From the NCBI RefSeq assembly GCF_003018115.1, contig NZ_CP027457.1: 64,000 nucleotides of DNA; one strand, written 5' to 3'. A model generated the notes under the pieces. The model did no database searches. It had not been told where the DNA came from and was given only the letters and a program-made list of their open reading frames with translations. Position 1 is the first letter of the stretch, and every line of letters starts with the position of its first letter. Shown piece after piece: positions 2,459 to 33,901 of the stretch. This DNA comes from Escherichia coli (GTDB lineage: Bacteria > Pseudomonadota > Gammaproteobacteria > Enterobacterales > Enterobacteriaceae). The translations under genes and the position numbers were made by a program.

Positions 2459-3219
2459 GAGTTCCCCGCGCCAGCGGGGATAAACCGAAAATTGGGACGC
2501 TAACTCATGGGTCTGGGTAGAGTTCCCCGCGCCAGCGGGGATAAACCGGGAAAAACGCCTGTGGTTGGGGCTGAACCAGGGAGTTCCCCGCGCCAGCGGG
2601 GATAAACCGTCGGCGCGCTCTCTGTAGAGCGGTTGTGTGATGAGTTCCCCGCGCCAGCGGGGATAAACCGTCGTCGGGTCCGACAGGGGTCGGTTGTTCG
2701 CCGAGTTCCCCGCGCCAGCGGGGATAAACCGGCTTAATAAACGAGGAGAATACCGATGTTTTTAAGTTCCCCGCGCCAGCGGGGATAAACCGTTCTTTTA
2801 ATGGCGTCAGGCCCATTACAGAGCGAGTTCCCCGCGCCAGCGGGGATAAACCGTTTTGACGATTATTCTAAAAGTGAAAATAGCAGAGTTCCCCGCGCCA
2901 GCGGGGATAAACCGCACGCTGGAGTGACCGGGTGGCAGAGCATGACGAGTTCCCCGCGCCAGCGGGGATAAACCGCCATTTCATCATGAACGGCGGAAAT
3001 ATCGTGGGAGTTCCCCGCGCCAGCGGGGATAAACCGGTCAGTTCCCGGTTGATATATATGATGAGCATGAGTTCCCCGCGCCAGCGGGGATAAACCGCGC
3101 AATGGCGCGGCGATTGCTCTCGAGATCAAGTGTTCCCCGCGCCAGCGGGGATAAACCGGGTACAAAAGAGGCCCCATTCTGGCAGGGCTCGAGTTCCCCG
3201 CGCCAGTGGGGATAAACCA
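2459..3219 (+). CRISPR. Type I-E CRISPR array, 13 repeats and 12 spacers (queE-ygcE side)
   Basis: 29-bp repeat GAGTTCCCCGCGCCAGCGGGGATAAACCG at 2459, 2520, 2581, 2642, 2703, 2764, 2825, 2886, 2947, 3008, 3069, 3130, 3191 with exact 61-bp period and 32-bp unique spacers. Repeat 6 starts AAG, repeat 12 starts GTG, terminal repeat 13 is degenerate (..CCAGTGGGGATAAACCA). Confidence 0.97.
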
Positions 3220-3308
3220 CCATATAACCCGTTATCTCTTTCTCAAGTTTTTATATTAGCTGTACTTGTAATAAGCAACATATCCACGTAACACCTCATG
3301 TTCATAAT

Positions 3309-3332
3309 AGTTCCCCATGCCAGATAAGTTCA
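3309..3332 (+). repeat. Decayed CRISPR repeat remnant
   Basis: agttccccatgccagataag resembles the repeat with an internal deletion, about two repeat-spacer units beyond the terminal repeat. Confidence 0.3.
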
Positions 3333-3687
3333 CAATTATCGATACAAAAAATTAAAGTTAATCAAAGTGTTATTTGTATAATTCTTAAGCCGTTAAGAAA
3401 TTTTAATCTATTATTTTTTTAATATTAATTAATGCCTGTTAATTTTTTCTTTAGTATAACAGTGTGTTTTTTAAGCTTGTTATTCATTGATTAAGTAATA
3501 AATCTGGAAATTTGTCTTTGTTTTGAGGCTAATGAGTGGTTTTACATAACCGCCTCTATACGCTGTTGATGAATAGTTCTTATGAATAAAGATATCCAGT
3601 TCATACTTTAAGTGAAAATTGATAAAGTGCGATTCGTATTGTCTTTTATTCTAAAGACATCGAGTGTAGTTAATATTCCTTGTAAAA

Positions 3688-3810
3688 ACAGGGATAAACC
3701 GAACTAGTTGAAGTTTTTATTATGTTCCCTGCATCAGCGGGGATAAACCGGACTTGTTATCATTTTTTAAGTTGTCGAACTTATGTTCCCCGCGTCAGCG
3801 GGGATAACCA
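3688..3810 (+). CRISPR. Degenerate satellite CRISPR array (3 repeat copies, 2 spacers), preceded by an AT-rich leader-like stretch
   Basis: Partial repeat ..acagggataaaccg (3688-3701), 20-bp spacer, repeat ATGTTCCCTGCATCAGCGGGGATAAACCG (3722-3750), 32-bp spacer, repeat ATGTTCCCCGCGTCAGCGGGGATAACC (3783-3810). Confidence 0.8.
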
Positions 3811-3856
3811 TTCAGGTATGTTCAGGCCGGGCAGTTTCCCGCCCGGTCTTCCTCAC

Positions 3857-5335
3857 TTACGCATTCGACCAGCTCTGGATCGAATCCGCATTCCCCAATT
3901 CCCCATGCATCACTTCATACGATTTTTTCAGGATCACATCAGTATGTTTGGTTAGGGCTTTGAAAATACCTTTATTCATCGCGTCGTAGCGTTTGGCATT
4001 GCTCTCAACAGGCATAAAGATATCTTTCACGCGAACCATTTTGTCGACAGCCGTTGCGTAATCCGGGTATAGCCCCAGACCTACCGCCGTATTGATCGCT
4101 GCCCCCAGACTTGCACAACCGTTAATGGCGTTACGGCGTGCAGGAAGGTTGAACACGTCGGCAAAAATTTGCATAAATAGATCGCTGTTCGAACCGCCGC
4201 CAGTAATGATCACATGCTTTGCAAAGTGATTCATTTCATTACACATATTGTCGTAATTGTTCTTCAGCGTCAGCGCCACGCTTTCCAGTATCGAACGATA
4301 TATCCATGCGTAATCCATGCTGGAATCAAAGCCGATCATAATCCCACGTTTGTAGGGTTCCCACGGGTTGGTCAGCCAGTCCAGCACCGTCATCAGACCA
4401 TTACAGCCAGGCGGCACACAAGAAGCTTTTTTGTTGAGCAAATCTTCCGGTGAAAGATCCTGTGCTTTGGCATCCTGAATTAACGACTCGCCTAACATGT
4501 CGCGTAGCCAGCTCACCGTCCACATGCCTTTACGGATACCGTACCCTTCATACAGCAATGTTTCCGGAATAGAAGACATAATCGGCCAGTACGCCACCGG
4601 ATCTTTCGGCAGTGCTTTACCGTTCATCATCAGCGCGATGTAGGTGCCAAGAGAAATCACCGCCGTTTCATCATCCAGCAATCCGGCTCCCAGAGCTTCT
4701 ACCGGTTTATCACTGGTGGTACAAACAACCGGCAGCCCTGCCGGGAAATGTGTCGCCAGCGCGGCTTGAGGTGTGATCTGTCCAAGAACAGTGCCTGGCA
4801 TTTGCACATCAAACAGCATATGACGGGGGATATTAAACTTCTCCATGACTGCGGCATCTTCACTCCATGCCCAGCTCTTATAATCCACCGGCCACTGACC
4901 AAAATAGTTGGCGATATTGTCTTTAAACTCGCCGGTTAAGCGATGCGTCAGATAACCCGAAAAAGAGGTGACATATGCCACGTCAGGATTAGTGTGTTCG
5001 TAGGGACGCGTTACGCGTGCATCCTGCCAGCTAATCAATGGCGCAGCTGGCGTGCCATCGGCTTTCAATAACGCACGGCAGCAACGGATGGATCCCAGAC
5101 CAATACCGACAATATCTTCTTTATTCCCGGCAAACTGACTCATCAAATCGTGACCGGCAAAACATAATGATGCCCATAAATCGTCGTCAGGATGTTCTGC
5201 GGTATCGGCATCTGGCGTGTGCATCGGCTGCAATAAGCCTTTACCTTCGCAAACCACATTACCTTCCAGATCGTACATCACCACTTTTGTGCTCTGACTT
5301 CCGCCATCAATCCCTATGATGTATTTTTTCGACAT
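3857..5335 (-). CDS. ygcE: FGGY-family carbohydrate kinase
   Basis: 492 aa; N-terminus MSKKYIIGIDGGSQSTKVVMYD (FGGY kinase N-terminal motif); synteny. Confidence 0.88.
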   Translation of the reverse strand: MSKKYIIGIDGGSQSTKVVMYDLEGNVVCEGKGLLQPMHTPDADTAEHPDDDLWASLCFAGHDLMSQFAGNKEDIVGIGLGSIRCCRALLKADGTPAAPLISWQDARVTRPYEHTNPDVAYVTSFSGYLTHRLTGEFKDNIANYFGQWPVDYKSWAWSEDAAVMEKFNIPRHMLFDVQMPGTVLGQITPQAALATHFPAGLPVVCTTSDKPVEALGAGLLDDETAVISLGTYIALMMNGKALPKDPVAYWPIMSSIPETLLYEGYGIRKGMWTVSWLRDMLGESLIQDAKAQDLSPEDLLNKKASCVPPGCNGLMTVLDWLTNPWEPYKRGIMIGFDSSMDYAWIYRSILESVALTLKNNYDNMCNEMNHFAKHVIITGGGSNSDLFMQIFADVFNLPARRNAINGCASLGAAINTAVGLGLYPDYATAVDKMVRVKDIFMPVESNAKRYDAMNKGIFKALTKHTDVILKKSYEVMHGELGNADSIQSWSNA

Positions 5336-5361
5336 GATTTTTCTCCTGTAATTTTCCTGGC

Positions 5362-6639
5362 TTACTTGCTGCTAGCTATTGCGGGGGCGCTATCAGCAGT
5401 ACGAATTTTTTGGAACAGCAAAAAGGTAAAGACAATCACCATGGCAAGCGCCGCCATTCCCATCAGCCACATATTGCGGTAGGCTTCTGCTGCGGGCAGG
5501 GTGTCTTGCCAGTGGCCGATAATTGGGTAAACGAAGACATCCGGCAGGAATCCAATCACCGAACAAATACCTACCGTGGTGCCCATAATGTAAGACGGTG
5601 TTCTCGCTTCGCCAGGGCAGGCCCAGTACAGCCCGCGTGAGGCGTAACAGGTGAATCCCAGCAGTATAATCAGGCCAATCCCCATCGCGACCGATTGCGG
5701 GTTAGAGTTCGTGACGAGCAGGGCAGTTAACGCCAGCAGGCCGAGTACGGAAAGGATTTGGATCACGCGGGTAGGGGATTTCACTTTACTGTAGGTGGTG
5801 ATAATGCCGCCAAGTGGGCCGCACAGCGCGCGGAAGATTTTGTTGATCACAATCCCCATGTAGCTCGCCGCCACCAGCGACATGCCGTACATTTCGGTCA
5901 GATAGTTGGTGGAGTAACTCAGAATGGCGTAGATGGTGAAGACACCAAAAATCACCATGCTGCAATACCAGGTGGTGCTGATGCGCAAAACGGCCAGGAT
6001 GTCGCTAAGCTGGAATGACTGTTTTTCTTCGTTATTGGCACTGCGCAGGTTGTTGTTATCGCTAACAAAAAACCAGCACAGAATCCCCAACAAGATGTAA
6101 ACCACACTATAGATGATAATGACCGTTTTCAGGCTGGTGCTGTCATCCGGTGCAAAGCGAGAAAAGACCCACATGGTAAACACCGCCAGCGACATTACAC
6201 CGACGCCGCGCAGCCCTTCCATCCAGCCCATAATTTTCCCTTGCTCGCTATGATCGCCAAGCAACGAGGCGGCTTTAATCGACACCGACCACAGCATTAA
6301 AATCGTTGTTATCGCAAAGGCGACCTGAATACAGAGCATTACCCACAGCGGTGGATACGTTGCCATTAACAGACCCAGTAATCCGGTAATGATCATCGCG
6401 GAAGTAATCATTTTGCGGTGTGAAAATTTATCGGCAATAACGCCGCTGGGGGCATAAAGAATAATAGCCGCAATACCAAAGGTACTCATTATTAAACCTA
6501 TCTCGGTATTGCTGAATCCCATAAATTTCGCCATGGGAATTTGATAAATATAACGTAAATAAGCCAGGTCGAAACTAACGCCGCCGCTAAAACTAATTAT
6601 CGCGAGGGTTATCCAACGGCGATATGAGTTGTGTTGCAT
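5362..6639 (-). CDS. yqcE: MFS transporter
   Basis: 425 aa, multiple hydrophobic TM segments; 26 bp upstream of ygcE, likely co-transcribed. Confidence 0.85.
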   Translation of the reverse strand: MQHNSYRRWITLAIISFSGGVSFDLAYLRYIYQIPMAKFMGFSNTEIGLIMSTFGIAAIILYAPSGVIADKFSHRKMITSAMIITGLLGLLMATYPPLWVMLCIQVAFAITTILMLWSVSIKAASLLGDHSEQGKIMGWMEGLRGVGVMSLAVFTMWVFSRFAPDDSTSLKTVIIIYSVVYILLGILCWFFVSDNNNLRSANNEEKQSFQLSDILAVLRISTTWYCSMVIFGVFTIYAILSYSTNYLTEMYGMSLVAASYMGIVINKIFRALCGPLGGIITTYSKVKSPTRVIQILSVLGLLALTALLVTNSNPQSVAMGIGLIILLGFTCYASRGLYWACPGEARTPSYIMGTTVGICSVIGFLPDVFVYPIIGHWQDTLPAAEAYRNMWLMGMAALAMVIVFTFLLFQKIRTADSAPAIASSK

Positions 6640-6663
6640 ATCGTATTCCCATTTGTAATAGAC

Positions 6664-6711
6664 AAAAAAAAGAGAAAAGTAAGCCTCCCTTTCAGGTGGA
6701 TTACTTTTCTC
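6664..6711 (-). terminator. Intrinsic terminator in the yqcE 5' leader (minus strand)
   Basis: On minus strand: gagaaaagtaa - 18-nt loop - ttacttttctc followed by TTTTTTTT, ending about 25 nt before the yqcE ATG (6639). Confidence 0.55.
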
Positions 6712-6760
6712 AGGTCTCTAGTAATTGAAATAATAAATAACATGGAAAGCAGAGGTGTTG

Positions 6761-6776
6761 TGTGAGAGTAATCACG
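6761..6776. promoter_or_regulatory. CRP-like site (TGTGA-N6-TCACG), positioned for a class II promoter reading toward yqcE
   Basis: tgtgagagtaatcacg, 9/10 match to the CRP half-sites. Confidence 0.4.
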
Positions 6777-6817
6777 CTTCTGCTTTTTAAAATTATTTGA
6801 CAATACGAATATCACAC

Positions 6818-6833
6818 TGTGATTACGATCACA
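6818..6833. promoter_or_regulatory. Consensus CRP site (TGTGA-N6-TCACA) upstream of ygcW
   Basis: tgtgattacgatcaca, perfect match to both CRP half-sites; a TTGACA -35-like hexamer at 6797-6802. Confidence 0.55.
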
Positions 6834-6859
6834 TTAGCAGTTATGTCCTTATGCTAAAA

Positions 6860-6884
6860 ATTATCTCCAGTTACCAGAGATAAT
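6860..6884 (+). other. Leader RNA hairpin (8-bp stem, 9-nt loop) upstream of the ygcW leader terminator
   Basis: attatctc-cagttacca-gagataat perfect inverted repeat. Confidence 0.4.
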
Positions 6885-6890
6885 GAGAAA

Positions 6891-6933
6891 GGTAACTTCC
6901 CTCTCGCGGGGGAAGTTACCTTTCTTTTTTTTT
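6891..6933 (+). terminator. Intrinsic terminator in the ygcW 5' leader
   Basis: ggtaacttccc-tctcgcgg-gggaagttacc (11-bp perfect stem) followed by TTTCTTTTTTTTT, ending 25 nt before the ygcW ATG (6958). Confidence 0.75.
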
Positions 6934-6957
6934 GCCTTACGGAAATTGGAGCTAACT

Positions 6958-7743
6958 ATGTCAATCGAATCTCTCAATGCGTTCTCAATGGATTTTTTCT
7001 CCCTGAAAGGTAAAACAGCAATTGTTACCGGCGGGAATAGCGGTTTAGGTCAGGCATTTGCAATGGCGTTGGCCAAAGCTGGCGCAAATATTTTTATTCC
7101 AAGTTTTGTCAAAGATAACGGCGAAACAAAGGAAATGATTGAAAAACAGGGTGTTGAAGTGGACTTCATGCAGGTGGATATCACCGCAGAAGGCGCACCG
7201 CAGAAGATTATCGCTGCCTGCTGTGAGCGCTTCGGTACCGTCGATATTCTGGTTAACAATGCCGGTATTTGTAAGCTGAATAAGGTGCTGGATTTCGGTC
7301 GTGCCGACTGGGATCCAATGATTGATGTGAACCTGACCGCCGCATTCGAGTTAAGCTACGAAGCGGCAAAAATTATGATCCCGCAGAAAAGCGGTAAAAT
7401 TATTAATATCTGTTCATTGTTCTCTTACTTAGGTGGACAATGGTCACCTGCTTATTCAGCCACTAAACATGCTCTTGCCGGATTCACCAAATCCTATTGC
7501 GATGAATTAGGTCAATATAATATTCAGGTGAATGGTATTGCCCCGGGATATTACGCTACCGATATCACTCTGGCGACCCGTAGTAATCCAGAAACTAACC
7601 AGCGCGTTCTTGATCATATTCCGGCAAACCGTTGGGGCGATACTCAGGATTTAATGGGCGCAGCCGTATTCCTCGCAAGTCCGGCATCGAATTATGTCAA
7701 CGGGCATTTATTAGTGGTTGATGGCGGTTATTTAGTGCGCTAA
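6958..7743 (+). CDS. ygcW: Short-chain dehydrogenase/reductase (SDR)
   Basis: 261 aa from ATG 6958 (SD ggag upstream); TGGNSGLGQA Rossmann motif; ORF track start 6883 lies inside the leader terminator and is rejected. Confidence 0.88.
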   Translation: MSIESLNAFSMDFFSLKGKTAIVTGGNSGLGQAFAMALAKAGANIFIPSFVKDNGETKEMIEKQGVEVDFMQVDITAEGAPQKIIAACCERFGTVDILVNNAGICKLNKVLDFGRADWDPMIDVNLTAAFELSYEAAKIMIPQKSGKIINICSLFSYLGGQWSPAYSATKHALAGFTKSYCDELGQYNIQVNGIAPGYYATDITLATRSNPETNQRVLDHIPANRWGDTQDLMGAAVFLASPASNYVNGHLLVVDGGYLVR

Positions 7744-7812
7744 CCCATAACGGTGGTTTCTGTTTTCTCTTATTAATGATTATTCCATTTTTATTATCAG
7801 GAAGGAATTACT

Positions 7813-9267
7813 ATGTCTTTATCTCGCGCAGCGATTGTCGACCAGCTAAAGGAAATTGTTGGTGCAGATCGCGTAATTACCGATGAAACAGTATTAAAGA
7901 AGAACAGTATTGACCGTTTTCGTAAATTTCCGGATATTCATGGCATTTATACTTTGCCGATTCCGGCAGCGGTCGTAAAACTCGGTTCCACAGAGCAAGT
8001 ATCCCGTGTGCTGAATTTTATGAATGCGCACAAAATTAACGGTGTGCCGCGTACCGGTGCTTCCGCCACCGAAGGTGGGCTGGAAACTGTTGTAGAAAAC
8101 TCGGTGGTGCTCGACGGTTCCGCCATGAATCAAATCATTAATATTGATATTGAGAATATGCAGGCGACGGCGCAATGTGGCGTTCCGCTGGAGGTGCTGG
8201 AAAACGCGTTGCGTGAAAAAGGTTACACCACGGGGCATTCTCCGCAGTCAAAGCCGCTGGCGCAGATGGGCGGCCTGGTAGCAACCCGCAGTATCGGGCA
8301 GTTCTCCACACTCTACGGCGCAATCGAAGATATGGTCGTTGGTCTGGAAGCAGTATTGGCTGATGGCACCGTGACACGTATTAAAAACGTGCCACGCCGC
8401 GCGGCTGGCCCGGACATTCGTCACATCATCATCGGCAACGAAGGTGCATTGTGCTATATCACTGAAGTAACAGTGAAAATCTTTAAATTCACCCCGGAAA
8501 ACAACCTCTTCTACGGCTATATCCTGGAAGACATGAAAACCGGCTTCAACATCCTGCGTGAAATCATGGTGGAAGGGTATCGTCCGTCGATCGCTCGTTT
8601 GTATGACGTTGAAGATGGCACCCAACACTTCACCCATTTTGCCGACGGAAAATGCGTGCTGATCTTTATGGCTGAAGGTAACCCTCGCATTGCGAAGGCG
8701 ACGGGCGAAGGGATTGCGGAAATCGTTGCCCGCTACCCGCAATGCCAGCGCGTGGACAGCAAGCTGATCGAAACCTGGTTTAACAACCTGAACTGGGGAC
8801 CGGATAAAGTGGCTGCCGAACGTGTGCAGATCCTCAAAACCGGCAACATGGGCTTTACCACCGAAGTGTCCGGCTGCTGGAGCTGCATCCACGAAATCTA
8901 CGAAAGTGTTATTAACCGTATTCGTACCGAGTTCCCGCACGCCGACGACATCACTATGCTGGGCGGTCACTCCTCTCATAGCTATCAGAACGGCACCAAC
9001 ATGTACTTCGTCTACGACTACAACGTTGTCGACTGTAAGCCGGAAGAGGAAATCGACAAGTACCACAATCCGCTCAACAAAATCATTTGCGAAGAAACCA
9101 TTCGCCTCGGTGGTTCGATGGTGCACCACCACGGTATCGGTAAACATCGCGTTCACTGGAGCAAACTGGAACACGGCAGCGCGTGGGCGTTGCTGGAAGG
9201 GCTGAAAAAGCAATTCGATCCTAACGGCATTATGAACGCGGGTACTATCTATCCGATTGAAAAATAA
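7813..9267 (+). CDS. ygcU: FAD-linked oxidase (alkyl-DHAP synthase-like)
   Basis: 484 aa; synteny and size. Confidence 0.85.
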   Translation: MSLSRAAIVDQLKEIVGADRVITDETVLKKNSIDRFRKFPDIHGIYTLPIPAAVVKLGSTEQVSRVLNFMNAHKINGVPRTGASATEGGLETVVENSVVLDGSAMNQIINIDIENMQATAQCGVPLEVLENALREKGYTTGHSPQSKPLAQMGGLVATRSIGQFSTLYGAIEDMVVGLEAVLADGTVTRIKNVPRRAAGPDIRHIIIGNEGALCYITEVTVKIFKFTPENNLFYGYILEDMKTGFNILREIMVEGYRPSIARLYDVEDGTQHFTHFADGKCVLIFMAEGNPRIAKATGEGIAEIVARYPQCQRVDSKLIETWFNNLNWGPDKVAAERVQILKTGNMGFTTEVSGCWSCIHEIYESVINRIRTEFPHADDITMLGGHSSHSYQNGTNMYFVYDYNVVDCKPEEEIDKYHNPLNKIICEETIRLGGSMVHHHGIGKHRVHWSKLEHGSAWALLEGLKKQFDPNGIMNAGTIYPIEK

Positions 9268-9273
9268 TGTGTC

Positions 9274-9338
9274 AGGCAGCGTCCCGTGATGACGGGGCGT
9301 TGCCTTTTCGGCTTCTCAGGTGAGAAGCCGTTCTTATT
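9274..9338 (+). terminator. Tandem hairpins between ygcU and ygcS; the second is a terminator-like hairpin 23 nt before the ygcS start
   Basis: Hairpin 1 ggcagcgtcccg-tgatga-cggggcgttgcc (two G-U pairs) then CUUUU; hairpin 2 cggcttctc-aggt-gagaagccg then TTCTTATT. Confidence 0.5.
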
Positions 9339-9360
9339 ACCGGACAATGAAGGGGTAAAG

Positions 9361-10698
9361 ATGAACACTTCACCGGTGCGAATGGATGATTTACCGCTTA
9401 ACCGTTTTCACTGTCGAATTGCTGCGCTCACTTTCGGCGCACACCTGACCGACGGTTATGTTCTCGGCGTCATTGGTTACGCCATTATTCAACTTACGCC
9501 CGCCATGCAACTGACGCCGTTTATGGCGGGAATGATCGGCGGCTCGGCGCTCCTTGGTTTGTTTCTTGGCAGCCTGGTTCTTGGGTGGATCTCCGACCAT
9601 ATTGGTCGGCAAAAAATCTTCACCTTCAGCTTTTTGCTGATTACGCTCGCTTCGTTCTTGCAATTTTTTGCCACCACGCCAGAGCATCTTATTGGGCTGC
9701 GCATTTTGATCGGCATTGGGCTGGGAGGCGATTACTCAGTCGGTCACACCTTGCTGGCTGAATTTTCCCCGCGCCGCCATCGCGGTGTTTTGCTGGGCGC
9801 ATTCAGCGTGGTGTGGACCGTAGGCTATGTGCTGGCAAGTATTGCCGGACATCACTTTATTTCCGAAAACCCGGAGGCCTGGCGCTGGCTACTGGCATCG
9901 GCAGCTCTGCCCGCGTTGTTGATTACGTTATTACGCTGGGGAACGCCAGAATCGCCACGCTGGCTACTGCGCCAGGGGCGTTTTGCAGAAGCTCACGCTA
10001 TCGTGCATCGCTATTTTGGTCCCCATGTTTTACTGGGCGATGAAGTGGTAACGGCGACCCATAAACACATCAAAACCTTGTTCTCTTCGCGTTACTGGCG
10101 GCGCACGGCGTTTAACAGCGTCTTCTTTGTCTGCCTCGTAATCCCATGGTTTGTGATTTATACCTGGCTGCCAACTATCGCCCAGACTATTGGTCTGGAA
10201 GATGCGCTGACTGCCAGCCTGATGCTTAATGCGTTGTTAATTGTGGGCGCGCTGCTGGGATTAGTTCTGACGCACCTGCTGGCACATCGCAAATTTTTGC
10301 TGGGAAGTTTTTTGCTGCTGGCGGCAACGCTGGTAGTAATGGCCTGTTTGCCTTCCGGCAGTTCATTAACGCTGCTGCTTTTTGTTCTCTTCAGCACCAC
10401 CATTTCGGCAGTCAGTAATCTGGTGGGCATTTTGCCTGCGGAAAGTTTTCCTACTGACATTCGCTCGCTGGGCGTCGGTTTTGCCACCGCCATGAGTCGA
10501 CTTGGCGCGGCGGTAAGTACTGGCCTGCTGCCGTGGGTGCTGGCGCAGTGGGGAATGCAAGTCACCTTATTGCTCCTGGCGACAGTGTTGTTGGTTGGTT
10601 TTGTTGTGACCTGGCTATGGGCACCAGAAACCAAAGCCCTCCCGCTGGTGGCGGCGGGAAATGTAGGAGGTGCGAATGAACATTCTGTTAGCGTTTAA
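9361..10698 (+). CDS. ygcS: MFS transporter
   Basis: 445 aa from ATG 9361 (MNTSPVRMDD...); ORF track start 9286 rejected. Confidence 0.85.
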   Translation: MNTSPVRMDDLPLNRFHCRIAALTFGAHLTDGYVLGVIGYAIIQLTPAMQLTPFMAGMIGGSALLGLFLGSLVLGWISDHIGRQKIFTFSFLLITLASFLQFFATTPEHLIGLRILIGIGLGGDYSVGHTLLAEFSPRRHRGVLLGAFSVVWTVGYVLASIAGHHFISENPEAWRWLLASAALPALLITLLRWGTPESPRWLLRQGRFAEAHAIVHRYFGPHVLLGDEVVTATHKHIKTLFSSRYWRRTAFNSVFFVCLVIPWFVIYTWLPTIAQTIGLEDALTASLMLNALLIVGALLGLVLTHLLAHRKFLLGSFLLLAATLVVMACLPSGSSLTLLLFVLFSTTISAVSNLVGILPAESFPTDIRSLGVGFATAMSRLGAAVSTGLLPWVLAQWGMQVTLLLLATVLLVGFVVTWLWAPETKALPLVAAGNVGGANEHSVSV

Positions 10699-11455
10699 AG
10701 CCGAACCGGATGCCGGAATGCTGGCGGAAAAAGAGTGGCGGGCGGCGGCTCAGGGTAATAGCGGACCGGATATTTCGCTACTGCGAAGTTTACTCGGTGC
10801 TGATGAACAGGCTGCCGCCGCGCTGCTGTTGGCGCAGAGAAAAAACGGTACGCCGATGTCTTTAACCGCGTTGAGCATGGGGGATGAACGGGCGTTGCAC
10901 TGGCTGCGCTATCTCATGGCTCTTGGGTTTGAGGAAGCTGTATTGCTGGAGACGGCGGCAGATCTGCGCTTTGCGCCGGAATTTGTCGCTCGCCATATTG
11001 CCGAATGGCAGCGTCAGAATCCGCTGGATCTGATAATTACCGGCTGCCAAAGCAGCGAAGGGCAGAATGGGCAAACGCCATTTTTGCTGGCGGAAATGCT
11101 GGGCTGGCCCTGCTTCACCCAGGTGGAGCGTTTCACTCTCGACGCGCTGTTTATCACCCTCGAACAGCGTACTGAACATGGGTTGCGTTGTTGCCGGGTT
11201 CGCTTGCCTGCGGTGATTGCCGTGCGTCAGTGCGGTGAAGTGGCCTTGCCAGTACCGGGAATGCGCCAGCGAATGGCTGCGGGGAAAGCAGAAATTATCC
11301 GTAAAACTGTTGCTGCCGAAATGCCAGCGATGCAGTGTCTGCAACTGGCAAGAGCAGAGCAACGACGCGGAGCGACGCTGATTGATGGGCAAACGGTAGC
11401 AGAAAAAGCTCAAAAGCTATGGCAGGACTATTTACGCCAAAGGATGCAGCCATGA
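10676..11455 (+). CDS. ygcR: Electron-transfer flavoprotein beta subunit (FixA-like)
   Basis: 259 aa from ATG 10676 with SD aggagg; overlaps the ygcS stop. Confidence 0.85.
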   Translation: MNILLAFKAEPDAGMLAEKEWRAAAQGNSGPDISLLRSLLGADEQAAAALLLAQRKNGTPMSLTALSMGDERALHWLRYLMALGFEEAVLLETAADLRFAPEFVARHIAEWQRQNPLDLIITGCQSSEGQNGQTPFLLAEMLGWPCFTQVERFTLDALFITLEQRTEHGLRCCRVRLPAVIAVRQCGEVALPVPGMRQRMAAGKAEIIRKTVAAEMPAMQCLQLARAEQRRGATLIDGQTVAEKAQKLWQDYLRQRMQP

Positions 11456-12312
11456 ATATCGCAATTGTGACAATAAATCAGGAGAATGCCGCAATAGCAA
11501 GCTGGCTGGCGGCGCAGGATTTCAGCGGTTGTACCCTGGCGCACTGGCAGATTGAACCTCAGCCTGTAGTGGCGGAACAGGTGCTGGATGCGTTGGTGGA
11601 ACAGTGGCAGCGAACGCCTGCGGACGTTGTTCTCTTTCCGCCGGGAACGTTTGGCGATGAACTGTCGACCCGGCTGGCCTGGCGTTTACATGGTGCAAGC
11701 ATCTGCCAGGTGACTTCGTTAGATATTCCAACCGTAAGCGTGCGCAAATCCCACTGGGGAAATGCGCTAACGGCGACGCTGCAAACAGAAAAACGCCCGC
11801 TATGCCTTTCCCAGGCGCGTCAGGCGGGAGCAGCGAAAAACGCCACGTTGCCCTCTGGAATGCAACAACTGAACATTGTCCCGGGTGCGCTTCCCGACTG
11901 GCTGGTTAGCACAGAGGATCTGAAAAATGTTACTCGCGACCCATTAGCTGAGGCCAGACGGGTGCTGGTGGTGGGGCAGGGCGGAGAGGCAGATAACCAG
12001 GAAATCGCTATGCTGGCAGAAAAGCTGGGAGCCGAAGTGGGCTACAGTCGGGCGCGAGTGATGAACGGTGGCGTTGATGCTGAAAAAGTGATTGGTATTT
12101 CCGGACATCTGCTGGCACCTGAGGTGTGTATTGTTGTTGGCGCTTCTGGCGCAGCAGCGTTAATGGCGGGCGTACGCAATAGCAAGTTTGTGGTGGCGAT
12201 TAATCATGACGCCAGCGCTGCGGTATTTTCACAGGTAGATGTTGGCGTGGTTGATGACTGGAAAGTGGTGCTGGAGGCACTGGTGACAAACATTCACGCA
12301 GATTGCCAATAA
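11452..12312 (+). CDS. ygcQ: Electron-transfer flavoprotein alpha subunit (FixB-like)
   Basis: 286 aa; ATGA overlap with the ygcR stop. Confidence 0.85.
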   Translation: MNIAIVTINQENAAIASWLAAQDFSGCTLAHWQIEPQPVVAEQVLDALVEQWQRTPADVVLFPPGTFGDELSTRLAWRLHGASICQVTSLDIPTVSVRKSHWGNALTATLQTEKRPLCLSQARQAGAAKNATLPSGMQQLNIVPGALPDWLVSTEDLKNVTRDPLAEARRVLVVGQGGEADNQEIAMLAEKLGAEVGYSRARVMNGGVDAEKVIGISGHLLAPEVCIVVGASGAAALMAGVRNSKFVVAINHDASAAVFSQVDVGVVDDWKVVLEALVTNIHADCQ

Positions 12313-12317
12313 CGTGT

Positions 12318-12428
12318 TGCCGGATGATCCTGCCTACGGTTCTGGCCTGGGGACTTGTAGGCCTGATAAGACGCGTCAAGCGTCGCATCAGGCGCTGAAT
12401 GTCGGATGTGGCGTGCGGCCTACAAATC
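12318..12428. repeat. REP/BIME repetitive extragenic palindromes
   Basis: gccggatgatcctgcctacgg ... gtaggcctgataagacgcg...cgcatcaggcgc ... ggatgtggcgtgcggcctac: REP-type palindromic units between convergent ygcQ and ygcP. Confidence 0.75.
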
Positions 12429-12459
12429 AAACCAAATTCAATTGGTTACGATTATCCCG

Positions 12460-13035
12460 TCAAAGTAATTTTTTCGCTAACGTCCAGACCCCGGTATTCG
12501 TGGTGGAAAGCGCCACGACACCCGCGTTAATCGCATTACGCGCATCTTCTTCATCGCACACCAGCCCACCGGCAATCAGCGGTTGGCGGATTTTCTCTGT
12601 CACCCAGCCCAGCACTTTGGGCATACAGCCTGGCAGGATCTCAATACAATCCGGATTCGATTGCGCAACTTGCTTATCAATGTTGTGAAACGAAATTGAA
12701 TCAACAATAAACAGGCGATGAATACAGAAAAAACCTTCCGCTCTTGCCGCTTTCAACATTGAGGCTTTGGTACTGATAATGCCGTCCGCCTCGGTCACCA
12801 GTTTCAAAAACTGAATCACGACTTCTTTATTTGACGCGCCTTCCAGCAAATCAACATGAATAAAAGCATATTTCCCGGCGTTCTTAATCTTTTTAACGAT
12901 ATTACTGATGGTGCAGATATTGCCGTACAACACGGAAATAAACTGGCATTCAGAGTCGATTGCCAGTTGCAGGCTGGCATTATCTTTAACGGCAGCAATC
13001 ACCGGATTCTGGCGGAGCAGGTGTAAGAGGGGCAT
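12460..13035 (-). CDS. ygcP: GlpP-family (glycerol-3-phosphate-responsive type) transcription antiterminator
   Basis: 191 aa; size and family recalled for K-12 YgcP; synteny. Confidence 0.8.
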   Translation of the reverse strand: MPLLHLLRQNPVIAAVKDNASLQLAIDSECQFISVLYGNICTISNIVKKIKNAGKYAFIHVDLLEGASNKEVVIQFLKLVTEADGIISTKASMLKAARAEGFFCIHRLFIVDSISFHNIDKQVAQSNPDCIEILPGCMPKVLGWVTEKIRQPLIAGGLVCDEEDARNAINAGVVALSTTNTGVWTLAKKLL

Positions 13036-13051
13036 AAATTATCCTTATTAT

Positions 13052-13312
13052 TTATCCAAAGCGGTAGGTGATGCCGAATCCGGAAGGCGGATAGCGCCAC
13101 TGTTGTAGTGTGGATTCGTCGCACAGCAAACGGCAGGTGCCACACTCCAGGCAGCCGTGATAATCAACGCGTAAGTCACCTTCCGGTGTGAGCGAAAAAA
13201 GACCTGCCGGACAGGCGTTAATCAACCGTTGTACCATCTGACGCTCAACGGAGTCAGCCGGAACAATGTGCGGCGCATCAGCAACGCGCCAGAGATTATG
13301 GGCTACAGACAT
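13052..13312 (-). CDS. ygcO: Ferredoxin-like protein (FixX-like)
   Basis: 86 aa from the internal Met (MSVAHNLWRV...); CxxC...CxxC motifs. Confidence 0.8.
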   Translation of the reverse strand: MSVAHNLWRVADAPHIVPADSVERQMVQRLINACPAGLFSLTPEGDLRVDYHGCLECGTCRLLCDESTLQQWRYPPSGFGITYRFG

Positions 13313-14574
13313 CGCAGACTCCTGATAACATCGCCCGCCAGATGCCACAGGCCATGACGACGTAAATGACGCCAGAATAACTGGCGCAGCGGTGGAACAG
13401 GTTTATCACCCTGATCCCATAAATCGCGGGAAATATCCTGCATTAACGCAGGCCACGCCCGATACCAGCCAGGGCGTTGCAAAAGCGCCGGAACATGCTG
13501 ATAACGTTGTAGAACATCCCATAGCAGGCTGCGCTCTACGTTGTGATGATAAAGCGCAAACAGATTTTGCGGCTCGCGGTGCTGGCAGGCGCTTATCAGC
13601 GTTTGTGCCGCCGCCTGCGCGCCAGTCAGCGCCATATCCATGCCGCGCACGGAAATTCCGGTATTGACGCAACTGCGCAACGCATCGCCCACCAGCAGCC
13701 AGCCGTTACCGGCGTATTGCACCGGCATACTGTGCAAGCCACCTTCTGGCACCAGATGCGCACCATACTCCAGTGATTCCGTGTTTTTGATAAGCGGGCG
13801 CACTGCCGGATGCGCTTTAAAGCGAGTCAGCAGCTCGCTTGCCGGAACACGACTTTGCGTAAGGGAAGAGAGCGGGCAAACAATCCCTAACGAGAGCGTT
13901 TGTTGATTAGTATAAAGAAATGCGCCGCCGGGTAAGTCATCACAGATCCTGCCGCTGAACAGCAACGCTGCGCCTTCGTTTTTCTCCAGATGAAAACGTT
14001 CTTCAATAGCGGATGTTTCCAGCGACAGCACTTCTTTGATCCCCAACGCCATCGCTTCGCCAGCAGGACGAGTCACTAATCCGTGACGTTCAGCCAGGAC
14101 GCTGTTGGCACCTTCTGCCAGCACCACATAACGGGCGCGGAGAATATCGTCACCACAAATGACACCACACACCCTGCCGTTTTCTTCATACAGTGCATCC
14201 ACCGTCGCTCCGGGGATGCATTCGACACCTTCTTTTTCGGCTTCGGCAACCAGCCACGGATCGAACCGTGCACGTAATACACTCCAGGATTCACCGCCGG
14301 GCTGTAAGCTGGAAAACGTCGTTACGCCATCGGGCGTTAACAGGGAAAGGCTTTCGTGAGTGATGCGTCGTTCAAGAGGCGCGGTCAGATGAAACTGAGG
14401 GAGGAGTTCCGCGAGTGCATGGGTATATAACCGCCCGCCGGAAAGATTTTTGCTGCCGGGGATTTCAGCGCGTTCCAGTAACAAAACGGATAAACCCGCT
14501 CGCGCGCAGCGTAACGCGCAAGCGGTGCCTGCAATACCGGCACCAATAATAATAATGTCGCAGTCGTCTTCCAT
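13303..14574 (-). CDS. ygcN: FAD-dependent oxidoreductase (FixC / ETF-quinone oxidoreductase-like)
   Basis: 423 aa from Met MEDDCDIIIIGAGIAG (FAD-binding GxGxxG). Confidence 0.85.
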   Translation of the reverse strand: MEDDCDIIIIGAGIAGTACALRCARAGLSVLLLERAEIPGSKNLSGGRLYTHALAELLPQFHLTAPLERRITHESLSLLTPDGVTTFSSLQPGGESWSVLRARFDPWLVAEAEKEGVECIPGATVDALYEENGRVCGVICGDDILRARYVVLAEGANSVLAERHGLVTRPAGEAMALGIKEVLSLETSAIEERFHLEKNEGAALLFSGRICDDLPGGAFLYTNQQTLSLGIVCPLSSLTQSRVPASELLTRFKAHPAVRPLIKNTESLEYGAHLVPEGGLHSMPVQYAGNGWLLVGDALRSCVNTGISVRGMDMALTGAQAAAQTLISACQHREPQNLFALYHHNVERSLLWDVLQRYQHVPALLQRPGWYRAWPALMQDISRDLWDQGDKPVPPLRQLFWRHLRRHGLWHLAGDVIRSLRCL

Positions 14575-14651
14575 GTCATGCCCCAGATATCCAGAACACA
14601 ACACCCTAACATAGCGTTACTTAAGGGAAATTGACCGCCGACACACTCTTA

Positions 14652-15017
14652 TCATTCGCCGCGATAGATACAACCTGCGGTACAGGTTTCTTTTACCATC
14701 ACCGCACTTAACAGCGGCACAACGGGTTTAACCTGATCCCAAATCCATTTTGCTAAAACCTCGCTGGTTGGGTTTTCCAGACCTGGAATATCATTGAGAT
14801 AATGGTGATCGAGGCGCTCGTAGGTTGGTTTAAACGCCGCTTTTAGTTCAGCGAAATCGATAATCCAGCCCGTATGCGGATCGACTTCCCCGGTAATTTC
14901 CAGTCGCACCATAAAGGAATGCCCGTGCAGGCGACCACATTTATGCCCTTCCGGGACGTGTGGTAAGCGGTGAGCGGCTTCGAAGGTGAAATCTTTAAAT
15001 AACGTGGTGGACATCAT
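14652..15017 (-). CDS. queD: 6-carboxy-5,6,7,8-tetrahydropterin synthase
   Basis: 121 aa from [35 protein letters not shown] (His/Cys catalytic motifs). Confidence 0.9.
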
Positions 15018-15331
15018 AATTTCTCTACAGGACGATAAAACCGCCGTAGAGTACCGGAAAGGCTGTTTTTTCGCATTATCTAAAACGACTTTGTTGCGCA
15101 AAATCGCTGATTTATCTTAATGATTGGCTAAATTCATTTGTTTTTCATTGGGTTGGTTAATCTATTTTGTTGTTAAAGACTATTGCTAAAACAGGTTAGT
15201 CGATTTGGTTATTAGTTATCGCTATCCCGTCTTTAATCCACACCATTTGCCCCGTTAACCTTACCTTCTCTTCTGTTTTTGGGCGCTGACAGGGCGCAGA
15301 AACAGCTTTGCTTACTGGAACATAACGACGC

Positions 15332-17131
15332 ATGACGACACAGGTCCCACCTTCCGCGTTGCTTCCGCTGAACCCGGAGCAACTGGCACGCCTTCAGGCG
15401 GCCACGACCGATTTAACTCCCACCCAGCTTGCCTGGGTTTCTGGCTATTTCTGGGGCGTGCTCAATCAGCAGCCTGCTGCGCTTGCAGCGACGCCAGCGC
15501 CAGCCGCAGAAATGCCGGGTATAACTATTATCTCTGCTTCGCAAACCGGCAATGCGCGCCGGGTTGCTGAAGCATTACGCGATGATTTATTGACGGCAAA
15601 ACTGAACGTTAAGCTGGTGAACGCGGGCGACTATAAATTCAAACAAATCGCCAGCGAAAAACTGCTTATCGTGGTGACGTCAACGCAAGGGGAAGGGGAA
15701 CCGCCGGAAGAAGCCGTCGCGCTGCATAAGTTCCTGTTCTCCAAAAAAGCGCCAAAGCTGGAAAACACCGCGTTTGCCGTGTTTAGCCTCGGCGATAGCT
15801 CTTATGAATTTTTCTGCCAGTCCGGGAAAGATTTCGACAGCAAGCTGGCGGAACTGGGCGGTGAACGCCTGCTCGACCGTGTCGATGCCGATGTTGAATA
15901 CCAGGCTGCTGCCAGCGAGTGGCGCGCCCGCGTGGTTGATGCGCTTAAATCGCGTGCGCCTGTCGCGGCACCTTCGCAATCCGTCGCTACTGGCGCGGTA
16001 AATGAAATCCACACCAGCCCGTACAGCAAAGACGCGCCACTGGTGGCTAGCCTCTCTGTTAACCAGAAAATTACCGGGCGTAACTCTGAAAAAGACGTTC
16101 GCCATATCGAAATTGACTTAGGTGACTCGGGCCTGCGTTACCAGCCGGGTGACGCGCTGGGCGTCTGGTATCAGAACGATCCGGCACTGGTGAAAGAACT
16201 TGTCGAACTGCTGTGGCTGACAGGCGATGAACCTGTCACCGTCGAGGGCAAAACGTTGCCTCTGAACGAAGCGCTACAGTGGCACTTCGAACTGACCGTC
16301 AACACCGCCAACATTGTTGAGAATTACGCCACGCTTACCCGCAGTGAAACACTGCTGCCGCTGGTGGGCGATAAAGCGAAGTTACAGCATTACGCCGCGA
16401 CGACGCCGATTGTTGACATGGTGCGTTTCTCCCCGGCACAGCTTGATGCCGAAGCGCTAATTAATCTGCTGCGCCCGCTGACGCCGCGTCTGTATTCCAT
16501 CGCCTCCTCGCAGGCGGAAGTCGAGAACGAAGTACACGTCACCGTTGGTGTGGTGCGTTACGACGTGGAAGGCCGCGCCCGTGCCGGTGGTGCCTCCAGC
16601 TTCCTCGCGGACCGCGTGGAAGAAGAGGGCGAACTCCGCGTATTTATCGAACATAACGATAACTTCCGCCTGCCCGCTAACCCGGAAACCCCGGTGATTA
16701 TGATTGGCCCAGGCACCGGTATCGCGCCGTTCCGCGCCTTTATGCAGCAACGTGCTGCCGATGAAGCACCGGGTAAAAACTGGCTGTTCTTTGGCAACCC
16801 GCATTTTACGGAAGATTTCCTCTACCAGGTGGAGTGGCAGCGCTACGTCAAAGAGGGCGTGCTGACACGTATCGATCTCGCCTGGTCGCGCGATCAAAAA
16901 GAAAAAGTTTACGTACAAGACAAACTACGCGAACAGGGCGCGGAGCTGTGGCGCTGGATCAATGACGGTGCCCACATTTATGTCTGCGGCGACGCTAATC
17001 ACATGGCGAAAGACGTTGAGCAGGCACTTCTGGAAGTGATTGCCGAATTTGGTGGCATGGACACCGAAGCGGCGGATGAATTTTTAAGTGAGCTGCGCGT
17101 AGAGCGCCGTTATCAGCGAGATGTCTACTAA
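15332..17131 (+). CDS. cysJ: Sulfite reductase [NADPH] flavoprotein alpha subunit
   Basis: 599 aa; flavodoxin and FAD/NADPH domains; cysJ-cysI-cysH order. Confidence 0.95.
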
Positions 17132-33782: not shown

Positions 33783-33797
33783 GTAAGCATCTGTCAG

Positions 33798-33835
33798 AAA
33801 GGCCAGTCTCAAGCGAGGCTGGCCTTTTTCTTTTG
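33798..33835 (+). terminator. rpoS intrinsic terminator
   Basis: aaaggccag-tctcaagcgagg-ctggccttt followed by TTTTTCTTTT. Confidence 0.7.
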
Positions 33836-33901
33836 TTTAGGAAGCTTGTGTTTTTGTCGCCTGGATAAGACACGTCAGCGTCCTACCCGGCAATTTGCAT
33901 C

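Follow-up and report, generated by a model that had tools for sequence, protein, structure and literature searches.

A conserved leader RNA motif and its putative GlpP-family antiterminator in the ygc gene cluster of Escherichia coli

The ygc Gene Cluster

The ygc cluster of Escherichia coli occupies positions 3857-14574 of the stretch of DNA analyzed here (contig NZ_CP027457.1, 64,000 nucleotides, called the window below), and this report is concerned with the RNA leaders of two of its operons and with YgcP, the GlpP-family protein that probably acts on them. Compared with E. coli chromosomes by Megablast, the region shows 100% query coverage with a best identity of 98.5%, and at least 80% of it is held by 5060 of 5426 complete E. 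coli genomes (93%). RefSeq names its ten genes ygcE, yqcE, ygcW, ygcU, ygcS, ygcR, ygcQ, ygcP, ygcO, and ygcN, and gene spacing divides them into three transcription units, namely yqcE-ygcE (minus strand), ygcW-ygcU-ygcS-ygcR-ygcQ (plus strand), and ygcN-ygcO-ygcP (minus strand).

3857-5335, minus strand: ygcE, FGGY-family kinase, second gene of the yqcE-ygcE operon; best NCBIfam models XylB and LsrK, far under cut-off
5362-6639, minus strand: yqcE, major facilitator superfamily (MFS) transporter with weak similarity to the ACS and OPA families
6958-7743, plus strand: ygcW, KduD-like short-chain dehydrogenase/reductase (SDR), 349.8 bits against NF005390 (cut-off 369)
7813-9267, plus strand: ygcU, FAD-linked (FAD_binding_4) flavoenzyme of the alkyl-dihydroxyacetone phosphate (alkyl-DHAP) synthase type
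9361-10698, plus strand: ygcS, MFS transporter, sugar-porter/organic-cation-like
10676-11455, plus strand: ygcR, electron transfer flavoprotein (ETF) beta subunit, FixA-like
11452-12312, plus strand: ygcQ, ETF alpha subunit, FixB-like
12460-13035, minus strand: ygcP, GlpP family (PF04309), putative RNA-binding antiterminator
13052-13312, minus strand: ygcO, FixX-like ferredoxin
13303-14574, minus strand: ygcN, FixC-like FAD oxidoreductase of the ETF-quinone oxidoreductase type

An earlier reading of the window made from the letters alone (the sequence-only reading) had described ten contiguous genes here, and Megablast to annotated E. coli chromosomes confirms their coordinates and content; the domains it named (FGGY kinase, two MFS transporters, SDR, FAD-linked oxidase, ETF alpha and beta, FixC/FixX, and the GlpP type) are likewise all recovered by profile searches. 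In the profile search, all ten proteins stay below the NCBIfam equivalog cut-offs, and therefore no specific function is assigned to them by the databases.

Mapping the ten E. coli proteins on loci of other bacteria shows that a core of ygcP, ygcW, ygcU, and ygcE is kept in Enterobacterales, Vibrio, and Photobacterium, in halophilic Bacilli (Halobacillus, Thalassobacillus, Virgibacillus, and Salibacterium), and in Clostridia and Negativicutes (Geosporobacter, Sporomusa, and Syntrophomonadaceae). Over these groups, YgcW and YgcU share 65-79% identity with their E. coli counterparts. The ETF genes stand beside the core in enterics and anaerobes, whereas aerobic Bacilli are without them, and FixC and FixX occur only in enterics among the loci compared. 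Conservation over the enteric genera (loci L005-L025) is uneven, in that YgcP, YgcW, and YgcU are 88-97% identical whereas YgcQ, YgcR, and YgcO are 40-75% identical, so that divergence is far quicker in the ETF and FixX parts than in the regulator or the core enzymes.

Leader Terminators of ygcW and yqcE

The region between the divergent genes yqcE and ygcW (6640-6957, 318 bp) contains the two strongest terminator-like structures of a 12.5-kb scan. Because the upstream gene is divergent in both cases, both hairpins are leader terminators and not the ends of an upstream gene. The elements of this region are listed below, where R1 is a covariance model described in the next section, whose E-values are rough owing to a shortened calibration, and P1 is a short helix at the beginning of each leader.

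6865-6934, plus strand: ygcW leader RNA motif, R1 score 81.7 bits, E 3.4e-16
6662-6730, minus strand: yqcE leader RNA motif, R1 score 59.4 bits, E 3.3e-11; site absent from the model seed
6817-6832: CRP site 1, TGTGATTACGATCACA, centred 43.5 nt upstream of P1 of the ygcW leader
6761-6776: CRP-like site 2, TGTGAGAGTAATCACG, centred 42.5 nt upstream of P1 of the yqcE leader

In the ygcW leader, P1 is formed by pairing of 6869-6875 with 6891-6897 and closes the loop AGAGAUAAUGAGAAA (6876-6890), and the terminator (6885-6926) consists of a 19-bp stem followed by a run of nine U residues to 6934, ending 24 nt before the ygcW start. The yqcE leader has the same layout, with P1 formed by 6725-6720 and 6705-6700, the loop AGAGACCUGAGAAA at 6719-6706, a terminator hairpin at 6711-6672, and a run of eight U residues at 6671-6664, the end of which is again 24 nt before the start of the gene. 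The 5' arms of the two terminators are near-identical (GAGAAAGGUAAC and GAGAAAAGUAAU), and a segment complementary to the centre of the arm stands before each of them (AGUUACC and AUUACU). Folding of the first 30-42 nt gives P1 as the minimum-free-energy structure, with a nascent energy of -6.7 kcal/mol for ygcW and -1.4 kcal/mol for yqcE. Since the terminators, at -34.2 and -21.0 kcal/mol, respectively, are far more stable than nascent P1, the folding calculations predict that termination is the default outcome and that a trans-acting factor would be needed to hold P1.

A search of Rfam 15 (E<=1) over 3000-15500 yielded no match in the leaders, the only hits being an naRNA4-like repetitive extragenic palindromic (REP) match and a spurious snoRNA match, and a literature search yielded no paper describing these leaders. 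Elsewhere in the window, the R1 model finds nothing real besides the ygcW and yqcE leaders: a match at 33778-33840 (19.5 bits) is an ordinary gene-end terminator, and opposite-strand matches at 6875-6951 and 6672-6711 are palindrome artefacts. Leader-peptide attenuation was also considered and rejected, as the AUG at 6883, although in frame with ygcW, lacks a Shine-Dalgarno sequence, and other lineages have no AUG at this position. This AUG is responsible for a mechanically called open reading frame (6883-7743) that stretches ygcW through the leader terminator; it lies within the conserved GAGAAA loop and is not the true start.

The RNA Motif Across Genomes

The leaders were compared over 80 loci encoding YgcP relatives, which were drawn from 100,044 species genomes. 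In practically all loci, the sequence upstream of ygcW, common to orthologs from approximately 50 species, reads AGTTACT-AGAG-N2-5-GAGAAAAGTAACTTCC-loop-GGAAGT..GCTTTTCTC-T8, and R1 was built on 34 ygcW leaders only; its seed sequences were chosen by a regular expression, and most of the 76 instances that were obtained were found by the model and not supplied by the seed. The yqcE leader was thus recovered independently by a model from ygcW leaders. The motif is approximately 70 nt long and consists of a helix P1 of 6-7 bp (AGUUACY/RGUAACU) that closes a purine loop, AGAG-N2-5-GAGAAA, and the 3' strand of P1 together with the loop forms the 5' arm of a strong terminator.

The 76 instances come from 41 sources among the fetched loci, belonging to Enterobacterales, Vibrionaceae, Bacilli, Clostridia, and Negativicutes, and in every case the gene that opens an operon follows at a distance of 20-150 nt. 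Behind the motif are operons of the ygcW type, yqcE-ygcE, ygcU-etfBA (in Clostridia), and transporter operons. In Vibrio, Photobacterium, and Budvicia aquatica, the motif stands before ygcE-MFS-ygcP, and therefore YgcP appears to be autoregulated in these organisms.

Both alternative helices of the motif are supported by covariation. The 7 bp of P1 are paired in 99.6% of cells of the seed alignment and in 95.1% of those of the 76-member alignment, with compensatory changes at four pairs. A G-C to A-U change is present in 19 sequences, among the yqcE leaders of enterics and, as a separate occurrence, among the ygcW leaders of Clostridia and Negativicutes; a U-A to C-G change is present in 15 sequences, and an A-U to G-C change in one sequence and again in Listeria booriae. 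In a control in which the 3' partner was slid by 1-3 columns, pairing fell to 13-58% and nearly all double changes were gone. The lower stem of the terminator is 99.7% paired, and compensatory changes occur in all eight pairs of the upper stem. Column 32, which closes P1, covaries both with its P1 partner and with its terminator partner, and such double covariation is, at the level of the alignment, what marks an antiterminator/terminator switch. Among the unpaired positions, those of the two GAG elements of the loop are invariant.

A metagenome scan with a 20-nt pattern returned mostly E. coli yqcE leaders. Among 25 loci without ygc genes, it gave a few stray sequence families, whose number is the chance expectation for a pattern of this length, and genuine R1 motifs in three loci (L088, L134, and L140); a further locus (L194) has an R1 match of 53.9 bits. 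One of the families is of marine phage origin (L193, 9831-9855; also L084, L127, L131, L141, L152, L160, L174, L180, L187, L190, and L199), where TTACTAGAGGGCACGAGAAAAGTAA and a weak AU-rich hairpin stand immediately before the small terminase gene, with a P1-like helix and a model score of only 28.6 bits; this element is probably a chance match.

Promoters and the CRP Input

CRP site 1 was predicted earlier by PhyloScan (PMC1794230) and binds CRP in vitro with a Kd of 1.7 nM (PMC12871828), and yqcE-ygcE has been classed as Crp-activated from transcriptomics (PMC8085971). The suggestion of the sequence-only reading that CRP provides a second input is therefore borne out by a published high-affinity site and published Crp-dependent expression. 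In all Gammaproteobacterial instances of the motif, the centre of a CRP consensus site is 42.5-44.5 nt upstream of the first base of P1, and the site is followed by an extended -10-like element, TGnTA; the geometry of site 2 is kept in all enteric yqcE leaders. By the class-II criterion (TGTGA-N6-TCACA near -41.5), each of the divergent promoters is predicted to have its own class-II CRP site. The CRP input as such had been known before; what is added here is the second site and the conservation of the predicted class-II geometry. The Firmicute instances have a TTGACA-17-TATAAT promoter, the end of which is 5-10 nt upstream of P1.

The motif begins at most 10 nt from the predicted transcription start, which in the window would lie near 6866-6868 (plus strand) for ygcW and near 6727-6729 (minus strand) for yqcE; terminated transcripts would have their 3' ends near 6930-6934 and 6664-6668, respectively. 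Because the promoter elements end just before P1, the transcript is predicted to open with the motif, as it does in the glpD leader of Bacillus subtilis, discussed below.

YgcP and the GlpP Parallel

YgcP matches PF04309 (G3P_antiterm) over the full length of the model with an E-value of 1.6e-62, and this is the sole Pfam domain found in it. Its relatives in the PDB are the GlpP-family structures 3kts (E 1e-27) and 1vkf (E 8e-15), and it keeps the C-terminal phosphate-type GG...S/T motif. The RNA motif is found in all 52 loci having at least two of ygcW, ygcU, and ygcE beside YgcP and in none of the 28 others, which either are truncated or have a GlpP-family gene alone, an association whose counts include related genomes. 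Three loci fetched via the kinase all encode YgcP and have the motif in the expected place, with lower scores of 56.7 bits in Sebaldella, 36.5 bits in Caproiciproducens, and 27.1 bits (E 0.0005) in Listeria booriae.

In B. subtilis, GlpP with glycerol-3-phosphate (G3P) causes antitermination at the leader terminators of glpD, glpFK, and glpTQ (PMC9604022, PMC10573289), and, in the papers found, GlpP-type antitermination has been characterized only for this glycerol regulon. The glpD 5' untranslated region (PMC9604022, Table S4) has a helix, GGUC/GACC, that closes the loop CUGAGAUGAGGAGA with its GAG repeats (GAG-AU-GAG-GAG); the 3' strand of the helix lies inside the 5' arm of the terminator, and the energies are -6.1 kcal/mol for the small hairpin and -40 kcal/mol for the terminator. 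The ygc and GlpP systems thus share a PF04309 regulator, a 5' leader terminator just after the start site, a small GAG-loop helix upstream whose 3' strand is within the 5' arm of that terminator, a kinase within the regulon itself that makes, or in the case of ygc would make, the inducer, and a catabolite input, which is CcpA in B. subtilis and CRP for ygc. There are also differences, as P1 is GGUC/GACC in one and AGUUACY/RGUAACU in the other, the ygc regulon is without glycerol genes, the ygc hosts include Gram-negative bacteria with class-II CRP promoters, and the ligand is presumably another.

A further leader of this design was observed in a Lachnospiraceae metagenome-assembled genome (MAG; L072, 4968-5050), in which a GlpP-GlpK operon is followed by the leader AAUUAUCC-GUGGAGAAAAAGAGAAA-GGAUAGUU and a terminator, ahead of an apparent ABC-transporter operon (lipoprotein-like N-terminus). 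The design is the same as in the ygc and glpD leaders with a different P1 sequence, a hint that a GAG loop with a short closing helix may be the code used throughout the family.

Of the features that characterize GlpP-type systems, the PF04309 domain, a leader terminator (ygcW and yqcE), and a conserved overlapping antiterminator element are all present, whereas the glycerol/G3P regulon (glpFK, glpD, and glpTQ) is replaced by genes for an SDR, an FGGY kinase, an alkyl-DHAP synthase-like flavoenzyme, transporters, and ETF; YgcE itself is well under the GlpK cut-off. The phosphate-type motif of YgcP is kept while the gene context lacks glycerol genes, and this context argues for a phospho-ligand other than G3P. 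From these comparisons, we infer that the leader RNA is probably bound by YgcP, the ligand of which may be the product of YgcE or a close derivative of it.

Similarities to other antitermination systems are more limited. The BglG/SacY/LicT proteins (E. coli bgl; B. subtilis sac and lic) act in the leaders of catabolic operons and likewise stabilize a hairpin, the ribonucleic antiterminator (RAT), which overlaps with the 5' half of the terminator there. However, YgcP is unrelated to them, has no CAT or PRD domains in Pfam searches and no control by phosphotransferase system phosphorylation, and the ygc RNA is not an imperfect palindrome of the RAT type, its leaders being without an Rfam match. 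TRAP and HutP are RNA-binding attenuation or antitermination proteins that read spaced NAG triplets. The ygc leaders (AGAG...GAGAAA) and the glpD leader (GAG-AU-GAG-GAG) similarly contain spaced GAG triplets, and ligand-dependent binding, presumed in the case of YgcP, is a further likeness, but the folds are unrelated and the triplets read by TRAP and HutP are not in a hairpin loop; by analogy, YgcP might read its triplets as an oligomer. Overall, it is fairly secure, as far as sequence comparison goes, that the ygc mechanism is of the GlpP kind, working like BglG/RAT without being a member of that group.

The Hairpins Between ygcU and ygcS

9274-9340, plus strand: ygcU-ygcS spacer hairpins, of which 9274-9305 is Escherichia-specific and 9309-9330 is conserved in Enterobacteriaceae with a U-rich tail

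The conserved GC hairpin, GGCUUCYC-N4-GRGAAGCC, shows compensatory changes by eye within Enterobacteriaceae, and the U tract that follows it in E. coli (UUCUUAUUACC) is weak. Neither P1 nor a GAG element is present upstream of this hairpin in any of the approximately 30 species examined, and R1 has no match at the ygcU-ygcS spacer in the window or in any locus. The hairpin, although conserved, was therefore rejected as a YgcP site because the motif is absent across these species; it is more likely to be an intra-operon attenuator or a processing/stability element, and control of ygcS by YgcP beyond that exerted at the ygcW leader is not supported. The sequence-only reading had counted three leader terminators relieved by YgcP. 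Those of ygcW and yqcE stand as leader terminators, since they share one covariance model and a promoter-to-gene position, and relief by YgcP agrees with the conserved switch, the co-occurrence, and the GlpP parallel for the yqcE-ygcE and ygcW operons; on both counts, the ygcS hairpin has to be set aside.

If ygcS began at its RefSeq/PGAP start, 9289, the conserved hairpin would be part of the coding sequence. The ATG at 9361, which has the Shine-Dalgarno sequence AAGGGG, is conserved across Enterobacteriaceae, and yields a 445-aa protein, is the better start.

Proposed Mechanism and Alternatives

Taken together, we consider it likely that the ygc cluster is a CRP-dependent, substrate-inducible catabolic module whose two divergent operons are gated by GlpP-type, protein-dependent antitermination. 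Each operon would be transcribed from a class-II CRP promoter, and the transcript would begin within a few nucleotides of the ~70-nt leader. The nascent RNA would first form the weak helix P1 (AGUUACY/RGUAACU), closing the loop with the two GAG elements. When P1 is not stabilized, its 3' strand and the loop would be captured by the more stable intrinsic terminator, and transcription would stop before the first gene. YgcP carrying a phosphorylated pathway intermediate would bind the P1/GAG element and hold P1, so that no terminator forms and read-through occurs. Because the kinase YgcE is itself encoded behind one of the leaders, basal read-through in the presence of substrate would lead to positive feedback.

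Several points weigh against this proposal. The counts of covarying cells are inflated by relatedness, and the U-A to C-G change lies within one clade. The transcription starts and 3' ends are predicted from sequence, and ygcP itself belongs to the third operon, ygcN-ygcO-ygcP, which has neither the motif nor a recognizable promoter. The literature search revealed no paper on ygcP function and no experimental link of YgcP to the RNA or to ygc expression, and the sole reported sign of an inducing condition is a 1.69-fold increase of ygcU with D-serine, deletion of ygcU having no phenotype. In addition, the ligand is not deducible from sequence and may be G3P itself.

This last point leads to the alternative that YgcP senses G3P and that the cluster is another route of glycerol/G3P oxidation, for example an anaerobic, ETF-linked one. 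Membership in PF04309, the C-terminal GG...S/T motif, and the logic of a kinase followed by a flavin dehydrogenase, which parallels GlpK/GlpD, would all fit, but none of the 52 loci contains glp genes or GlpF/GlpT-type transporters (the transporters being of the YqcE-type MFS, BCCT, and Opu types), P1 is unlike the glpD target in sequence, GlpK-linked GlpP-family loci have no R1 matches, and YgcU resembles alkyl-DHAP synthase and not GlpD/GlpA, so that we regard this alternative as improbable. The full model of the sequence-only reading, in which YgcP relieves all three hairpins including that of ygcS, can draw on the conservation of a GC hairpin with a U-rich tail in the ygcU-ygcS spacer of most Enterobacteriaceae. 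However, the absence of a model match and of a P1/GAG loop, the weak U tract in E. coli, and the lack of the motif also where ygcS is sited elsewhere in the genome (Pantoea and Serratia proteamaculans) make it decidedly improbable.

The hairpins could also be constitutive attenuators that silence a cryptic, decaying cluster in E. coli without any antitermination, given that no inducer or phenotype has been reported and that expression has been reported only as CRP-dependent. Decay is hard to reconcile with ten intact genes retained in 93% of E. coli genomes, with an antiterminator helix kept by compensatory changes over very large distances, and with a YgcP that is 88-97% identical across enteric genera while the neighboring ETF genes are 40-60% identical, and this explanation is accordingly very improbable. 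The least probable of these readings, to which we give hardly any weight, is that the leader is a riboswitch sensing a small molecule, with YgcP being an enzyme or an unrelated regulator. The very high conservation of the ~35-nt 5' element across phyla and the absence of an experimental tie of the element to YgcP speak for a riboswitch, but the element is merely a helix of 6-7 bp with a purine loop of 14-18 nt, it has no Rfam match, no locus without a YgcP gene contains it in the 52/52 versus 0/28 comparison, and the design is that of the glpD leader, where antitermination depends on GlpP.

Pathway and Candidate Substrates

The literature search found no study of a ygc substrate, in agreement with the statement of the sequence-only reading that the substrate is not established. 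Two apparent leads were rejected, in that the reading of YgcS as a possible nicotinamide importer (PMC8601175) rests on an indirect overexpression effect, and the "ygcO" of PMC13104625 is a typographical error for ycgO. The names of YgcE homologues are all generic ("FGGY-family carbohydrate kinase").

The enzymes themselves are more informative. The best PDB match of YgcU is alkyl-DHAP synthase (AGPS; E 4e-40), as compared with E 8e-26 for 2-hydroxyacid dehydrogenases of the GlcD/LctD type. Alignment to 4bby and 2uuu shows that the Arg, the Tyr, and the His-His-His loop of AGPS are kept, whereas GlcD-type 9qgz has GEHG, and the residues concerned (R262, Y398, and H438-440, equivalent to Arg419, Tyr578, and the HHH loop of AGPS) are invariant in 54 orthologues. 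A further likeness to ether-lipid synthesis, whose alkyl-DHAP reductases in mammals, DHRS7B and DHRS7, are SDRs (PMC13200781), is the SDR gene that accompanies ygcU. YgcU differs from AGPS in having no N-terminal extension (484 aa versus 584-658 aa) and in belonging to a catabolic operon with a kinase, transporters, and ETF. The nearest PDB relative of YgcE is LsrK, and its nearest relatives, XylB and LsrK, phosphorylate the primary hydroxyl of a terminal diol. KduD-type enzymes, which YgcW resembles, oxidize a secondary hydroxyl adjoining a terminal CH2OH. The combination of the AGPS-like YgcU, these kinase relatives, the KduD-like SDR, and a regulator of a G3P-sensing family suggests chemistry on a G3P or DHAP skeleton substituted at C1. 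Long-chain lipid substrates for YgcU appear unlikely, because the operon has soluble-solute transporters and a kinase.

The transporters and accessory genes point in a further direction. YqcE-type MFS proteins weakly resemble organic-anion/organophosphate carriers, and E. coli YgcS weakly resembles organic-cation carriers. In 13 of 16 non-enteric loci, a BCCT or an OpuA/OpuC-type ABC transporter stands beside the core, and such transporters are directly behind the RNA motif in L046, L047, L054, L055, and L128/L156. In one deep-lake Bacillota MAG (L134, 6229-8705), the motif is followed by an MttB-family methyltransferase, a PanB homologue, and an Opu-type transporter, and in another (L060, 8456-9877), the ygc operon ends with an MttB homologue behind etfA; both methyltransferases are non-pyrrolysine and score 403 and 292 bits, respectively, against TIGR02369, below its cut-off. 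In Caproiciproducens and Sebaldella, the last gene of the operon encodes a SurE-type phosphatase. The presence of BCCT/Opu transporters and MttB-family methyltransferases with the motif hints that the substrate in non-enteric lineages carries a quaternary ammonium group and, together with the AGPS-like active site of YgcU, that it is a 1-substituted glycerol/DHAP-type compound, possibly with a quaternary amine, rather than an ordinary sugar.

A specific route can be put forward only tentatively, and we consider it rather doubtful in this detailed form. The cluster would degrade compounds of the type X-CH2-CHOH-CH2OH, X having a quaternary ammonium in many lineages, by phosphorylation, oxidation at C2, and expulsion of X. 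YgcE would phosphorylate the free primary hydroxyl to give a G3P analogue, which would be the ligand of YgcP; YgcW, or YgcU with ETF, would oxidize C2 to give a DHAP analogue; and the AGPS-like YgcU, through covalent flavin chemistry, would expel X to give DHAP, such that ether-lipid enzymology would serve in catabolism. Glycerophosphocholine, deacylated betaine lipids, and (2,3-dihydroxypropyl)trimethylammonium may be compatible candidates, judging from the gene content.

This pathway logic has precedents. In the glycerol (GlpK/GlpD) and Brucella erythritol (EryA/EryB) pathways, an FGGY kinase is likewise followed by flavin oxidation of a phospho-polyol, and the phospho-intermediate is the inducer. 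By contrast, YgcU is of the FAD_binding_4/AGPS type and not of the GlpD/DAO type, and ygc has a dedicated ETF with FixCX and an extra SDR. YgcR, YgcQ, YgcN, and YgcO are paralogues of FixA, FixB, FixC, and FixX, and the E. coli fixABCX-caiTABCDE (carnitine) and ydiQRST systems similarly provide a dedicated set of ETF and ETF-quinone oxidoreductase for one catabolic flavoenzyme; in other phyla, the partner transporters of ygc are BCCT proteins like CaiT. The partner flavoenzyme of ygc, however, is of another family.

Significance

The new element described here is an RNA motif that is absent from Rfam, is supported by covariation, and, as judged from the alignments, has spread with its protein over at least four phyla. 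To our knowledge, the RNA code of GlpP-type antitermination has never been defined from comparative data, and the motif provides a sequence and structure definition with 76 instances and covariation in both alternative helices. If the proposal is true, a subfamily of the GlpP family would for the first time have a defined recognition motif, one that is portable across phyla. The coupling to predicted class-II CRP promoters in Gram-negative bacteria and a putative pathway around an AGPS-like flavoenzyme are also new.

A ten-gene block of E. coli y-genes would thereby become tractable, in the organism that is easiest to handle genetically, and leader-reporter fusions could serve as a biosensor in an inducer screen. 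The terminator/antiterminator pair is near-identical from Halobacillus to E. coli and could be a portable part for synthetic biology, for which glpD with GlpP is a precedent. Bacteria that carry the module live in the gut, in association with plants, in the sea, and in hypersaline habitats. Since betaine-type transporters and MttB-family methyltransferases accompany it outside the enterics, its substrate may be an onium or glycerol-derived metabolite that is abundant but has been overlooked.

Neighborhood of the Cluster

The cluster is flanked by a clustered regularly interspaced short palindromic repeat (CRISPR) array and queE on one side and by queD and cysJIH on the other. The ygcN-ygcO-ygcP unit is immediately 3' of queD, and the gap between them (14575-14651) contains no terminator after queD and no recognizable promoter or motif before ygcN; ygcN-ygcO-ygcP, and hence the regulator, may be co-transcribed with this queuosine gene. 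Between the convergent genes ygcQ and ygcP lies the REP/naRNA4-like element mentioned above (12360-12433, minus strand), which scores 34 bits in Rfam, under the gathering score. The CRISPR array is of type I-E and occupies 2459-3219 of the window, with 13 repeats of GAGTTCCCCGCGCCAGCGGGGATAAACCG at a 61-nt period, and a degenerate remnant of two to three repeats (3680-3811) abuts the 3' end of ygcE.

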